A stretch of DNA of 64,000 nucleotides from Clostridia bacterium (GTDB lineage Bacteria; Bacillota; Clostridia; Oscillospirales; CAG-272): contig JAFUOY010000022.1 of the NCBI GenBank assembly GCA_017481595.1, forward strand, positions 40,713 through 104,712, in the 5' to 3' direction. The position numbers were made by a program, and so were the translations under genes. Under the pieces are notes generated by a model that did not search any database, was not told where the DNA came from, and worked only from the letters and a program-made list of their open reading frames with translations. Below, one piece after another: positions 51,683-55,768 of this stretch (position 1 is its first letter; each line of letters opens with the position of its first letter).

Positions 51683-51711
51683 TTGACAGATAAAAAAATT
51701 TAATATATAAT
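51683..51711 (+). promoter_or_regulatory. sigma-A type promoter of the SipW/TasA-like operon
   Basis: TTGACA, 17-nt spacer, TATAAT (consensus), about 120 nt upstream of the first ATG. Confidence 0.65.
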
Positions 51712-51830
51712 TATTTTACTGAGAATCTCGCAAGTGCGCGTGCTTTCGAGCACGTACATGTGTATTGCGGTGAAAATATTCACTTGCATAATGGAGAATT
51801 TACGGAAAATTATAACAAAAGGAGTAGCTT

Positions 51831-52541
51831 ATGAGTACCTTTTTGGAAATTATGTTGATCATCTTTATGGTTTTCTTGTGTACGCTTTGTCTGTTTTGTA
51901 TCCTCGTTATCGTCAGAGACATCGTTCGTGAATCATCAAGACAGTTTAAGAAAGGGGACAAGGAAATCGAAGAAAAAAACCTGCCTGAGGCGATTGAGCC
52001 CGACGTGATTACAGAGCCCGAGGAAGTAGCCCCCGTAGCAGAGGCAGAAGATGTTGAACGTGACGAAAGCGAGGTTACGTTTAACAAAACACATATGACA
52101 ATGGCAGAAAAATACGCGTCCATTTCATCCGCTTACAGAGAGTATTTTGATTCTATCGTAAAGCATGCGCTCTCCAAGGAAGGCGTTCGCGAGTTCAAAA
52201 ATAACAACTACTACGATTACAAGATAGGCGCCCAGCGTCTTGTCCGTATCTTTATCAAGCGCGGTGAGGTAATTTGTGAGTTTATGTTTATTGACAGAGA
52301 TTTCAAAAACTACGCAAGCGCAAATAACGTAAAGATGAAGCCCTCCGCTACCTCCGTTAAGATAGTTGAGCCCTCTGCAGTTGGCGTTGCCAAGGACGGT
52401 ATCGACCTTGTATGTCAGCAGATAGAGGAAGAAAAGGAATACAAAAAGCAGCTCGCAAGAGAAAAACGCAGAGAGCAGCGTAAGAAAATGGCAGAGGCTG
52501 AAGCGGGCACAGAAAATAAAGAAACAGAAGGAACAAACTAA
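51831..52541 (+). CDS. hypothetical single-pass membrane protein (first gene of the SipW/TasA-like operon)
   Basis: AAAGGAG RBS, N-terminal TM helix, acidic linker, an unrecognised globular part and a Lys/Arg/Glu-rich tail. The stop overlaps the next start (TAATG). Confidence 0.6.
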   Translation: MSTFLEIMLIIFMVFLCTLCLFCILVIVRDIVRESSRQFKKGDKEIEEKNLPEAIEPDVITEPEEVAPVAEAEDVERDESEVTFNKTHMTMAEKYASISSAYREYFDSIVKHALSKEGVREFKNNNYYDYKIGAQRLVRIFIKRGEVICEFMFIDRDFKNYASANNVKMKPSATSVKIVEPSAVGVAKDGIDLVCQQIEEEKEYKKQLAREKRREQRKKMAEAEAGTENKETEGTN

Positions 52542-53272
52542 TGACTAATAAAACACCAACACCAAATACGACGTCGGATAATAAGGAAGCTGTAGTTGAC
52601 AAGAAAATGAAGACCTGGAATATAATAGGTATCGTTCTTTGCGTGCTTATGATTCCGATCCTTATTGTAAACTGCACCTTGCTTGTAAAAAGCCTTGTAA
52701 GTGATGACGTGCCAAGCATCGGCGGAAGAATACCTCTTATCGTTCTTACCGAGTCAATGGAGCCGAAAATAAAAGGCGGTGACATTATTATATGCCACGT
52801 ACCAAGTGAGGAGGATATTCAAAACCTCAAGAAAGGAGATATCATTTCCTTCTTTGACCCAAGAGGCGGCACAAGTGTTGTAACTCACCAGATATACTCC
52901 GACCCATATATGAAAAACGGTAAGCTCTATTTTGATACCTGGGGTGTAAACAACGTAAAGCCCGATGGCACACCCGATACGGATAACGTTCCAGTTCCCG
53001 CATCCAAGGTGGTTGGTATCTATCGCGGTACAAGAATTCCCTTCATAGGTAACGTTGCTATGTTTATGCAGTCCACTTGGGGACTTATCATTTGTATTTT
53101 CATTCCCTTGGCGGCACTCTTAAGCTTTGAATTCATTCGCAGAAAGAAACAGGATAAGGTAAAGGATAGCGATATTGAAGCCCTTATGGCAGAGCTTCAG
53201 GCGTTGAAGCAGGCTCAGGCAGATCAGTCTGCAGGCGCAGAGGATAAGGACGCTAACAAGCCCAACGAATAA
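52541..53272 (+). CDS. sipW: signal peptidase I, archaeal/ER type (SipW-like), copy 1
   Basis: LTESMEPKIKGGDII (catalytic Ser box) and VVTHQI (His box), plus a C-terminal TM helix and charged tail. Confidence 0.8.
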   Translation: MTNKTPTPNTTSDNKEAVVDKKMKTWNIIGIVLCVLMIPILIVNCTLLVKSLVSDDVPSIGGRIPLIVLTESMEPKIKGGDIIICHVPSEEDIQNLKKGDIISFFDPRGGTSVVTHQIYSDPYMKNGKLYFDTWGVNNVKPDGTPDTDNVPVPASKVVGIYRGTRIPFIGNVAMFMQSTWGLIICIFIPLAALLSFEFIRRKKQDKVKDSDIEALMAELQALKQAQADQSAGAEDKDANKPNE

Positions 53273-53357
53273 GGTATTTATTGTGCTTGCACAATGATAT
53301 AGATCATAAACTTAAATAGAAAATAAAAAACCAAACAAAATTTAAAGGAGAAAAATT

Positions 53358-54086
53358 ATGAAGAAGAACAAATTTATGAGACTTGCATCCGTAATGCTCA
53401 TGCTTTGTCTCATCACCACATGCGCTATCAGCGGTACTTTCGCTAAGTACACCACAAGCGATTCTGCGCAAGACTCCGCAAGAGTAGCTAAATGGGGCTT
53501 GACAGTAGTTGTTGAAGGTGATACTGCGTTTAAAGACAATTATGAAGGAACTGCAGGCGCAGGGGTTAACACAGTTTCTACCTTGGGTGGTGTTGGAGAT
53601 AGCGTTATAGCTCCCGGTACAAACGGCGTACTTTCCACAGCAAAAATTTACGGTCAATCCGAGGTTAGAACTAATGTTAAGGTTACAGTAGACCTTAGCC
53701 TTGGTGATAAATGGACAACAGATGGAGCAGATGTGTATTGTCCCCTTATCTTTACTGTTAACGGTACGGAGTATAAGATTGACGCAACAAACGATACAAC
53801 CGCTAAACTTGAGGCAGCAGTTGAAGATGCTATATTGGATATAATTTTGAACACTACAGCAGACTATACACCTAATGGTTCAGGTATATCTTCAGCAAAT
53901 CTTGACCATGTTGTTAACCATGATTTTGGTACTGAGGGCGAAACTGATTTAACAGTTAACTGGAGATGGGATTTTTCAACAAGTGAAGCAAATGATGCAA
54001 AAGATACAATTCTCGGTAACACTACAGGAGCTAACATTCCTACAGTTAATTTTAGCCTTAACATTGTAGTTGACCAGGTAGACTAA
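53358..54086 (+). CDS. TasA/camelysin-like secreted protein with SipW-type signal peptide
   Basis: The signal peptide ends ISGTFAKYTTSD (compare GTFAYFSD in TasA/CalY). Later blocks are APGTNG, a WRWDF block and a DTILGN block. Confidence 0.55.
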   Translation: MKKNKFMRLASVMLMLCLITTCAISGTFAKYTTSDSAQDSARVAKWGLTVVVEGDTAFKDNYEGTAGAGVNTVSTLGGVGDSVIAPGTNGVLSTAKIYGQSEVRTNVKVTVDLSLGDKWTTDGADVYCPLIFTVNGTEYKIDATNDTTAKLEAAVEDAILDIILNTTADYTPNGSGISSANLDHVVNHDFGTEGETDLTVNWRWDFSTSEANDAKDTILGNTTGANIPTVNFSLNIVVDQVD

Positions 54087-54252
54087 TCCATATCTATTTA
54101 AGTTTTAAGTTTATGTAATTTATCACTTAATTTGCCCCCACTCCATATGGGGTGGGGGTAAGTTAAGAAAAAGCTTTCTTGTTTTTCAAAGCACCCGAAT
54201 ATCGGATGATTTGAAAAGAAAAAAAGCAAATTAAGGAAAGGGGGTAATAATA

Positions 54253-55149
54253 TTGTCAAACCAGGAGCGCCAGACCCTGGAAAGCTATAAGACGGAGCAA
54301 AGAAACACCTACGTCCGTGTTATGCTTATGGTGAACATAGTATTTATATTACTTCTTATTACTATCGCAGTAATTGCCCTTAAGGTGAGTAACGTTTTAC
54401 CCGAGGGAGCTGATATATTCTATATCGTAGGCAAGGACCCGTCCCTTGAAATAACGGATCAGGACGGTAAAAAATGGAAAAACGAAGAAAACGTAGACAT
54501 TTTTAAAACCGACTACAAAAACGGAGAGGGACAGATTACCGTTGCCTCACAAGACGGTGACAAAATAATCGCCCCCGGTACTACAACGAAATATATGTTC
54601 GCGCTTTTTAACGACGGTAACGTGGCGTTAAAGTACGAAACAGATATTGATTTTTCACTTACCGTAAACGGAGATGAATCCCACTATTCAGATGATTTTC
54701 CCCTTCTTGTAAGATTAACCACGGACGAGGACGGCGGAAGATACTTAATGGGCTCTGAAACCGAATGGGTAAGCGTAAGCAAGGCGAAAATAGACAGCTA
54801 CGTAAGTCAGCTTGGCGCAAGCTCCTATGAGCATTTTACCCTTGAAATAAAGTGGGAATACGAGGGCGGTAACGACGAGCTTGATACCCTCCTTGGCAAT
54901 CTTTCCGCAGAGGGCTCTTTGGCAGGCGGTGACGGCGTTCTTATCACTATGGGTATCAATACCGTAGCAGAGGAGCATATCGACCCCGAAGCCGAGGGCG
55001 GCACTAAAATACAGGAAAACGGTCAACCCGTTGACGTTGAACACGGCGGCACTATCCGTTGGATCTGGCTCATACTTTTATTCTTGAACATAGCTATGAT
55101 AATCTTCTACATATCATGGATCCTTAACAAGCGAATGAACAAATGGTAA
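54253..55149 (+). CDS. TasA/camelysin-like paralog with N-terminal and C-terminal TM anchors
   Basis: It shares the IAPGT...F.LFN, KWEYEGG and DTLLGN blocks with the 53358 product. It uses a TTG start after GGAAAGGGGG. Confidence 0.5.
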   Translation: MSNQERQTLESYKTEQRNTYVRVMLMVNIVFILLLITIAVIALKVSNVLPEGADIFYIVGKDPSLEITDQDGKKWKNEENVDIFKTDYKNGEGQITVASQDGDKIIAPGTTTKYMFALFNDGNVALKYETDIDFSLTVNGDESHYSDDFPLLVRLTTDEDGGRYLMGSETEWVSVSKAKIDSYVSQLGASSYEHFTLEIKWEYEGGNDELDTLLGNLSAEGSLAGGDGVLITMGINTVAEEHIDPEAEGGTKIQENGQPVDVEHGGTIRWIWLILLFLNIAMIIFYISWILNKRMNKW

Positions 55150-55730
55150 ATAAGAAACAGTTAATAGTAAGAATAATTCTTTTCGTGCTTATAAGCGTAT
55201 TGCTTGGCGGCGGTATATATACCATTAACGCCAGCAACGTAGGTAATAATCAGATGCCAATGCCCTTTGGTCTTGGCTTGGGCGTAGTAATGTCGGGCAG
55301 TATGGAGCCCGTCCTTAGCATAAACGACGTTATACTCGTAAAGTCACAGGATGAATATCACCTTGGCGAAATAGTAGTATATCAAGCCAACGGAGAGCTG
55401 ATAGTACACGAAATAATCAAAATAGACGGAGAAGAGATCACCACTCAAGGCAGGGTGACAGGCTCTCCCGACGACCCCATATCCATAAAAGACGTAAAGG
55501 GAAAGGTTATCTTGACTCTTGGCGGCTTAGGAATTGTAGTTAAGATAATAAAAATGCCCGTTATAACCATTGCCCTCCTTCTTCTTTCCGTATGGCTGCT
55601 TTTAAAATCATACGCAAAGGAAAACGAAGAGGTCAATAAAAAAGCCAAAGCCCTTGACGATATCCGCAAGGAGCTTGAGGAGCTTAAGCAGGGCATTAGT
55701 AAAACCGACACTCCATCAAATGATGATTAA
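55143..55730 (+). CDS. sipW: signal peptidase I, archaeal/ER type (SipW-like), copy 2
   Basis: MSGSMEPVLSINDVILV (Ser box) and LIVHEI (His box), plus a C-terminal TM helix and charged tail. Confidence 0.8.
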   Translation: MVNKKQLIVRIILFVLISVLLGGGIYTINASNVGNNQMPMPFGLGLGVVMSGSMEPVLSINDVILVKSQDEYHLGEIVVYQANGELIVHEIIKIDGEEITTQGRVTGSPDDPISIKDVKGKVILTLGGLGIVVKIIKMPVITIALLLLSVWLLLKSYAKENEEVNKKAKALDDIRKELEELKQGISKTDTPSNDD

Positions 55731-55737
55731 CTAAAAA

Positions 55738-55768
55738 AGAAGTATGGCTCCTTCATACTTCTTTTTTT
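55738..55768. terminator. bidirectional intrinsic terminator
   Basis: AGAAGTATG-GCTCCTT-CATACTTCT flanked by A6 and T7. Confidence 0.8.

Follow-up and report, generated by a model that had tools for sequence, protein, structure and literature searches.

A conserved five-gene operon of uncultured gut Clostridia with two SipW-type signal peptidases and a putative TasA-type fiber system

Introduction

Fibers of the TasA superfamily are an emerging route to biofilm matrices and pili across domains, and their bacterial examples have so far come mainly from Bacillus and Clostridium perfringens. The superfamily is defined by structure and takes in TasA, AbpA, AbpX, TafE, threads and CanA. Here we analyze a five-gene operon at positions 51683-55768 of a 64 kb stretch of DNA from a Clostridia bacterium (contig JAFUOY010000022.1; the whole stretch is referred to as the window). 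We consider it probable that this operon encodes a self-contained cell-surface fiber system of the TasA type, whose subunits would polymerize by donor-strand exchange and a paralog of which would serve as membrane anchor. A listing of open reading frames (ORFs) placed five genes, all on the + strand, where the initial annotation of this DNA had put them:

51831-52541, + strand: G1, ORF of 236 amino acids (aa)
52541-53272, + strand: SP1, ORF of 243 aa
53358-54086, + strand: FIB, ORF of 242 aa
54253-55149, + strand: ANC, ORF of 298 aa
55143-55730, + strand: SP2, ORF of 195 aa

In the tapA-sipW-tasA operon of Bacillus subtilis (PDB 8AUR, 5OF1), as in the operon described here, a dedicated endoplasmic reticulum (ER)-type signal peptidase with a C-terminal transmembrane helix and a cytoplasmic tail is encoded beside the gene of its substrate. 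The two differ in that the operon here has two peptidases and not one, that TapA is absent and its place is taken by an unrelated membrane protein, G1, one domain of which is predicted to lie in the cytoplasm, and that there is a transmembrane-anchored paralog, ANC.

The sipW-bsaA-bsaB-bsaC operon of C. perfringens is likewise clostridial and combines a SipW peptidase with two TasA-like paralogs. In that system, polymers of BsaA remain bound to the cytoplasmic membrane, and published multimer models point to donor-strand exchange between the subunits (PMC7395162, PMC11580942). However, bsa has one peptidase, its von Willebrand A protein (BsaC) and adjacent sortase are absent here, and no bsa paralog has transmembrane helices at both ends. 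BsaA is also detectably related to TasA and belongs to a curated SipW-substrate family, whereas FIB is not and does not.

Among archaea, the haloarchaeal Tafi pili (tafA-G) resemble this locus in having a major subunit, a dedicated signal peptidase I (TafD) and a peptidase partner (TafG), and TafF, a pilin-like protein with membrane helices, has been proposed to end and anchor the fiber (PMC11821415, PMC12337348). The membrane helices of TafF are all C-terminal, whilst ANC has one at either end, and for both TafF and TafG the published roles are proposals (PMC11821415, PMC12337348). Among Tafi pili and the other archaeal fibers of the superfamily (AbpA, AbpX, threads, cannulae), some genomes have duplicated pairs of peptidase and partner. 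Unlike these archaeal systems, the system here is bacterial, and its signals are of the Sec rather than the Tat type.

A signal-peptidase homolog within a pilus operon is also known from Streptococcus pyogenes, where SipA/LepA (PDB 4N31) is the best PDB sequence match of SP2 (E 4.4e-4). SipA, which acts together with sortase-linked pili, is without the catalytic residues, whereas SP2 keeps Ser53 and His89, and neither a sortase nor an LPXTG protein is encoded in the operon here.

Systems of this kind, in which TasA-superfamily fibers come with anchors, minor subunits and signal peptidases of their own, are already known. The statement in the initial annotation that a clostridial version with a dedicated anchor was uncharacterized went too far, as the BsaA system (PMC7395162, PMC11580942) and the proposed anchor TafF of archaea (PMC11821415, PMC12337348) have been published. 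New features here are a large protein family that no curated library recognizes, two divergent peptidases that are present throughout, a candidate anchor whose two ends each have a transmembrane helix, and G1.

Results

SP1 and SP2 carry an invariant Ser/His pair

Both peptidases scored above the cut-off (51.85 bits) of TIGR02228, the model for archaeal/ER-type signal peptidase I, with 83.5 bits for SP1 and 55.2 bits for SP2, bearing out the initial annotation of two SipW-type signal peptidases. SP2 also matched Peptidase_S24 (30.6 bits, cut-off 23.3). With NF046067, the SipW equivalog model of Bacillus (cut-off 190 bits), both SP1 (84 bits) and SP2 (39.2 bits) fell below the cut-off. Judged by these profiles, they are SipW-type enzymes and not SipW orthologs. 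The closest PDB sequence relatives of both peptidases, besides the SipA match of SP2, were human SEC11A/C.

Bacterial-type signal peptidases have a Ser-Lys dyad in place of Ser and His, and the initial annotation had named a lack of the Ser/His pair as a result that would refute it. We aligned SP1 and SP2 with the real SipW of B. subtilis (from the tapA-sipW-tasA locus L057), with SEC11A and with 43-47 orthologs per peptidase. Ser47 and His87 of SipW corresponded to Ser72 and His116 in SP1, invariant in 44/44 orthologs, and to Ser53 and His89 in SP2, invariant in 48/48, so that the annotation passes this test. Asp106 of SipW, which lies in the GDNN box and has been reported as essential (PMC8767453), has no equivalent in either peptidase of the window, the aligned residues being Val136 in SP1 and Arg104 in SP2; this sets the two apart from the enzyme of tapA-sipW-tasA and had gone unnoticed in the initial annotation. 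Among the orthologs the column is variable, with Asp in 24/44 (SP1) and 30/48 (SP2). A distal Asp at the position of D112 in SipW is invariant in both families (Asp148 in SP1, Asp110 in SP2). Taken together, the missing Asp106 equivalent, the variable column and the invariant distal Asp suggest that SP1 and SP2 may work with a Ser/His dyad or with a different third residue, the distal Asp.

Hydropathy analysis predicted transmembrane helices at residues 31-49 and 181-199 of SP1, followed by a charged tail (200-243), and at residues 7-25 and 140-158 of SP2, which also ends in a charged tail. Both tails are predicted to be cytoplasmic. This agrees with the C-terminal helix and charged tail that the initial annotation gave to each peptidase. 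SipW likewise has a cytoplasmic C-terminus, the last 20 residues of which play a regulatory part of their own (PMC8767453). A weak match of the SP2 tail to SLATT_5/6 lay below the cut-off and was treated as noise. SP1 and SP2 are barely similar to each other, indicating that they did not arise by a recent duplication.

FIB is secreted and has a paralog, ANC, with a helix at each end

Alignment of the two family profiles in hhalign (A1 for FIB, A2 for ANC) gave a probability of 97.4% (E 1.5e-11), and a hidden Markov model of FIB found ANC at E 2e-6. The proteins are thus paralogs, as had been proposed. FIB is secreted, with a cleavable-looking signal peptide ending in GTFA before a mature sequence that starts KY, and the cleavage site is likely to lie between Ala29 and Lys30. 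The mature protein (~213 aa) has an isoelectric point (pI) of 4.1, and the ectodomain of ANC is likewise very acidic (pI 4.1). ANC lacks the cleavage motif ([AS] followed by [KR]Y) and has helices at residues 23-41 and 273-291 by hydropathy, with positive charges on the flanks that are predicted to be cytoplasmic. It fits a TafF-like architecture, in which a subunit-like extracellular domain, here the paralog of FIB, is joined to membrane-spanning helices. FIB is therefore treated here as the candidate major subunit and ANC as a candidate membrane anchor or terminator subunit.

Homolog searches returned 3747 relatives of FIB, counted as sequence clusters, all unnamed and without Pfam domains, and 330 relatives of ANC. 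FIB has a 100% identity match in a metagenome-assembled genome of a Clostridia bacterium. Mean column identity is 59% in ANC, both transmembrane helices included, compared with 32% in FIB. The most conserved part of FIB is its mature N-terminus, KYTT...D.ARVAKWG, which is near-invariant and common to all three FIB subclasses; the subclass motif is [TS]-[FLY]-[AS] before the cut and [KR]-Y after it, then A-[KR]-V-A-K-[WF]-G ~11 residues on. A near-invariant mature N-terminus that is common to paralogous subunits is as expected of a donor strand fitting related grooves, and the N-termini of TasA and AbpX are also conserved (bioRxiv 10.64898/2026.01.04.697558).

Further along the protein, Glu102 of FIB is invariant and Lys45 and Asp39 are conserved; subunits of the BsaA 'exchange and lock' type have an Asn-Glu-Lys triad and an inter-subunit isopeptide bond. 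A W-x-[WF] ... [ND]-D-x-[KL]-D-T-x-x-G-N motif was seen in both FIB and the ANC ectodomain. The motif and the acidity of the two proteins recall AbpX and its relatives, a clade of the superfamily that responds to calcium (bioRxiv 10.64898/2026.01.04.697558).

FIB and ANC are outside the TasA sequence family, with a TasA-like fold probable from predicted models

The initial annotation had described the two proteins as TasA/camelysin-like. That they are paralogs was borne out, but their membership of the TasA/camelysin sequence family was not. Pfam PF12389 (Peptidase_M73; IPR022121) gave no match at E<=1 in FIB and ANC or in the members of their families (88 for FIB, 56 for ANC), whilst it was found in all 62 TasA homologs that served as positive control. 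For the comparison, the TasA sequence was confirmed against 8AUR, the 62 PF12389 proteins were collected and a TasA/CalY profile (A3) was made from 54 sequences. Aligned to this profile in local, global and low-mact modes, FIB and ANC reached hhalign probabilities of 0.2-3.7% (2.7% for A1 or A2 with A3), and the mature domain of a broadened FIB profile (180 sequences; effective number of sequences, Neff, 5.1) gave a non-significant E of 0.37. No relevant PDB match was returned for FIB or ANC by single-sequence or profile searches, and the NCBIfam models, those for SipW-cognate signal peptides and substrates (TIGR04088 and related models) included, matched no member of either family, FIB itself having no hit at E<=1. 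Weak Pfam and NCBIfam matches of the proteins and family alignments (Lsr2, DUF4179, DUF7507, Neurensin, DUF4083) were below the cut-off and were treated as noise.

By all these searches, FIB and ANC are not members of the TasA/camelysin sequence family and, unlike BsaA, have no detectable sequence homology to TasA (no PF12389 match; hhalign ~3%). The notion that they are camelysin-type (peptidase M73) metalloproteases is effectively refuted: only the family label of the initial annotation speaks for it, PF12389 is missing from every family member, and the M73 protease label has itself been judged a probable misidentification of CalY (PMC11580942).

Short local similarities to TasA, none of them significant, were found at equivalent positions. 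The signal peptide and cleavage region of FIB aligned with that of TasA in hhalign (GTFA before KY in FIB, GTWA before AF in TasA; E 0.012), both signal peptides ending in G-T-aromatic-A and both mature proteins having an aromatic residue at position 2. A strand pair of FIB (PGT..F..N.GN.A) aligned with PGD..F..N.GSLA of TasA (E 0.015) and the last strand, VTVTQ, with FEATQ (E 0.34), so that the PG[TD]...N.G and terminal TQ motifs of TasA are collinear in FIB.

The AlphaFold2 model of FIB, with a predicted local distance difference test (pLDDT) score of 86.5, was mainly beta with two helices, and its likeness to a mainly-beta jelly-roll such as that of TasA is tentative. In Foldseek searches of 350,542 PDB chains, the top match of this model was the archaeal bundling pilus 7ueg_A (AbpA; E 1.7e-3, probability 0.87). 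The ANC model had a pLDDT of only 63, and its top match was the TasA fiber, 8aur_A (E 6.3e-4, probability 0.97). Both top matches are weak, with TM-scores of 0.23-0.29, and they are two different members of the TasA superfamily. Donor-strand pilins (FimG, PapG) were also in the lists. A trait of the superfamily, the position of a subunit gene beside dedicated signal peptidase I genes, is found here with two such genes, and the linkage is kept in 53 genomes (see below). On account of the predicted fold, the signal-peptide motif, the conserved mature N-terminus and the peptidase linkage, FIB and ANC are probable distant members of the structure-defined TasA superfamily.

The same data bear on the question of polymerization. 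FIB and ANC could be non-polymerizing surface or matrix proteins, for example an acidic secreted beta-sandwich adhesin and its membrane-bound relative, that merely use dedicated SipW-type peptidases for export. The weak TM-scores and the absence of a sequence-level link to TasA leave room for this, and BsaB, a TasA-like paralog of C. perfringens, forms only dimers (PMC11580942). We think this account unlikely, however, given that the mature N-terminal segment is strongly conserved across FIB subclasses and that the best structural match of each paralog is a fiber protein. Related loci also have multiple tandem FIB paralogs, and the known dedicated peptidases of this type are tied to fiber subunits (PMC9674648, PMC9245690, PMC12337348).

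The gene order is conserved in 53 genomes

We scanned one genome per species for relatives of ANC and classified the ORFs of the resulting loci with profiles. This gave 53 distinct loci in as many species-level genomes, all from uncultured animal or human gut Clostridia, with hosts including Christensenellaceae, Oscillospiraceae, Eubacteriales and others. The recurring order was G1, SP1, FIB1 (1-2 copies), ANC, an optional FIB2, SP2 and an optional short FIB3. Wherever the contig extends far enough, SP1-FIB-ANC-SP2 was kept in all 53 genomes, and two peptidases were present in every locus with enough flank. G1 was found 5' of SP1 in 36 loci, whilst the most divergent group lacks it or has none that could be detected. 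The arrangement that the initial annotation had proposed to look for in other Clostridia is thus a recurrent one, of which the window holds the minimal, five-gene version. In the close relatives L001 and L005, three further genes follow SP2, encoding FIB3 (154 aa), a 253-aa protein and a protein of >1637 aa; a Pfam scan of these extra genes in L001 gave no match.

Two of the four gene junctions are overlaps. G1 and SP1 overlap by 1 nucleotide (nt; TAATG), and ANC and SP2 by 7 nt (ATGGTAA), whilst the gaps of 85 nt between SP1 and FIB and of 166 nt between FIB and ANC leave these junctions uncoupled. Of the several translationally coupled junctions proposed initially, therefore, those two stand and the others do not. 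ANC starts with TTG behind a strong ribosome-binding site, GGAAAGGGGG, and its N-terminus agrees with those of its homologs. The overlap of ANC and SP2 recurs in many loci where both genes adjoin. SP2 is also retained in loci without FIB2 or FIB3, including those with a single FIB, which suggests that SP2 travels with ANC.

G1, whose gene is coupled to that of SP1, is, as initially described, a transmembrane protein unrelated to TapA. It has an N-terminal helix (residues 10-28), an acidic linker, a conserved domain of ~135 aa and a tail rich in Lys, Arg and Glu. The helix is flanked by 0 K/R on its N-terminal and 5 on its C-terminal side, an asymmetry from which the remainder of the protein is predicted to be cytoplasmic. 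Pfam, NCBIfam and PDB searches with the protein and its family gave no match, and 390 cluster representatives were found at E<=1e-3. The unit of helix and domain also occurs at the C-terminus of proteins of 1,000-1,900 aa (P0420, P0421, P0447, P0451) that have coiled-coil-like or adhesin-like regions. One of them has an adhesin-like domain near its N-terminus, which fits a large part outside the cell and the G1 domain inside. The unit may therefore be a reusable cytoplasmic module of surface proteins, and the coupling of G1 to SP1 suggests that G1 is a peptidase partner.

Two coupled pairs would also be expected if the operon encoded two hetero-oligomeric signal-peptidase complexes and a single substrate, with ANC (helix, beta-sandwich, helix) and G1 (helix, cytoplasmic domain) as accessory subunits of the peptidases instead of a fiber anchor and an assembly factor. 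Counterparts would be archaeal TafG (DUF5305) or, in the signal peptidase complex of eukaryotes, SPCS3 and SPCS1/2. The recurrent ANC/SP2 overlap and the retention of SP2 without FIB2 or FIB3 fit this proposal, the unusually conserved transmembrane helices of ANC are as expected of intramembrane contacts, and pairs of peptidase and accessory protein, sometimes duplicated, occur in TasA-superfamily loci (PMC11821415; bioRxiv 10.64898/2026.01.04.697558). We nonetheless regard it as improbable, because ANC is clearly paralogous to FIB, the substrate, and its best structural match is the TasA fiber and not a peptidase subunit. In a difference from Tafi, neither the ANC nor the G1 family had a DUF5305 (PF17231) match at E<=1, and in the FIB family this model matched 2/88 members only, at E 0.03. 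The proposal is partly compatible with a fiber system, as an anchor could also bind a peptidase.

Transcription signals and genomic neighborhood

The initial annotation had framed the operon with one promoter and one terminator. Both were recovered, the terminator hairpin folding at 55733-55767 instead of 55738-55768, together with a further hairpin between FIB and ANC:

51683-51711, + strand: sigma-70-type promoter, TTGACA-17-TATAAT, 12/12 match to the consensus
54126-54167, + strand: GC-rich hairpin of 19 bp in the FIB-ANC spacer, directly 3' of the FIB stop codon
55733-55767, + strand: intrinsic terminator, an A/U-rich hairpin with a 15-bp stem that leads into a U tract

The promoter lies 120 nt 5' of the G1 start and just past the terminator (51503-51537) of the preceding phosphotransferase system (PTS) operon. 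Its exact pattern occurs twice in the window, compared with 0.01 occurrences expected from shuffled sequences; the sole other perfect match is at 33672-33700. A 7-bp hairpin, CGUGCU-UUCG-AGCACG, was seen at 51738-51755, near the predicted 5' end of the mRNA, and is of doubtful significance, as the whole operon leader folds no better than shuffles (z -1.35).

The terminator fold has a free energy of -14.7 kcal/mol (z -5.5), and 0/200 shuffles were equally stable. Its A/U-rich stem caused a consensus scanner to overlook it, and by its symmetry it could work bidirectionally. The 117-nt fold that holds the 54126-54167 hairpin reached -37.1 kcal/mol (z -5.5; equally stable shuffles 0/200). No U tract stands immediately behind this hairpin, which may be a partial terminator or an mRNA-stabilizing element and in this way may set the ratio of FIB to ANC expression. 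A comparison of fold energies across loci did not discriminate, as a control region 3' of SP1 folded equally well, and Rfam gave no family match in 49-59 kb, the hairpin included.

On the 5' side, the operon is preceded by a MutS-family gene and the PTS EIIA/EIICB pair with its own terminator, and the flanking genes also include a metallo-beta-lactamase (MBL) hydrolase. The order of the MutS-family and PTS genes (47637-51537) is the same in L001 (1-3806), whose FIB is only 53% identical, indicating that the chromosomal position of the operon is conserved. No additional paralogs of FIB, ANC, the peptidases or G1 were found in the 64 kb of the window.

A promoter of this type is relevant to the possibility that FIB and ANC form part of a spore-associated structure, such as a coat or appendage component, as TasA was first described as the spore coat-associated CotN. 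Incorporation of TasA into B. subtilis spores needs SipW and TasA (PMC8767453), and the hosts here are Clostridia, many of which sporulate. The promoter is, however, a perfect vegetative sigma-70/sigma-A consensus and not of a sporulation-sigma type, and the flanking PTS transporter, MutS-family protein and MBL hydrolase include no sporulation gene, making a role in spores very unlikely.

On the 3' side, ~340 bp of non-coding DNA (55770-56106) with several hairpins separate the terminator from a convergent gene. Rfam gave no match for this stretch, which does not resemble related loci and contains no remnant of the extra genes that close relatives carry 3' of SP2. The convergent gene (56107-58134, - strand) encodes a multi-pass membrane protein of 675 aa with a HEFAH (HExxH) motif and no Pfam match at E<=1e-5, which may be an unclassified membrane metalloprotease.

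Discussion

The mechanism that we propose follows the published models for TasA (PMC9674648), BsaA (PMC11580942) and Tafi (PMC11821415, PMC12337348). FIB would be exported via Sec with its SipW-class signal peptide, and a dedicated ER-type signal peptidase would cut it after GTFA. We infer that the N-terminal segment freed in this way (KYTT...D.ARVAKWG) is taken up as a beta-strand by the jelly-roll of a neighboring subunit, giving a linear polymer. ANC, uncleaved and held by a helix at each end, would remain in the membrane as the base of the fiber, whether as anchor or terminator. G1 with SP1 and ANC with SP2, each translationally coupled, probably act as two modules of peptidase and partner, although the pairing of either peptidase with a particular substrate stays tentative, and the parts predicted to face the cytoplasm, the G1 domain and the charged peptidase tails, may connect the system to the cell interior. 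The strong promoter, possibly with the hairpin behind FIB, would yield much FIB and little ANC.

Several points count against this proposal. The sequence link to TasA is absent, as PF12389, NCBIfam, PDB and hhalign searches all lacked a significant match, and polymerization is a prediction. Both peptidases of the window lack an equivalent of Asp106, the residue reported as essential in SipW (PMC8767453), and no test made here accounts for the need for two of them.

A more specific version, which as a whole we put forward as doubtful, is a machine that grows fibers from the base, with signal-peptide cleavage timing polymerization. FIB would then stay tethered until the free N-terminal strand of the existing fiber docks into it, upon which the peptidase would release the strand of FIB itself. 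ANC would be an uncleavable pseudo-substrate in complex with SP2 that ends growth by anchoring the fiber, and the cell would control assembly from inside by way of the peptidase tails and the cytoplasmic G1 domain. If true, this would explain why two divergent peptidases are always kept, and the unannotated family would form a major structure on the surface of Christensenellaceae and Oscillospiraceae of the gut that are as yet uncultured.

If the TasA-type fiber system encoded by this operon is confirmed, it would provide a handle on the attachment and aggregation of unculturable gut bacteria. It would also be a natural test case for how TasA-type fibers are anchored and why dedicated peptidases accompany them.

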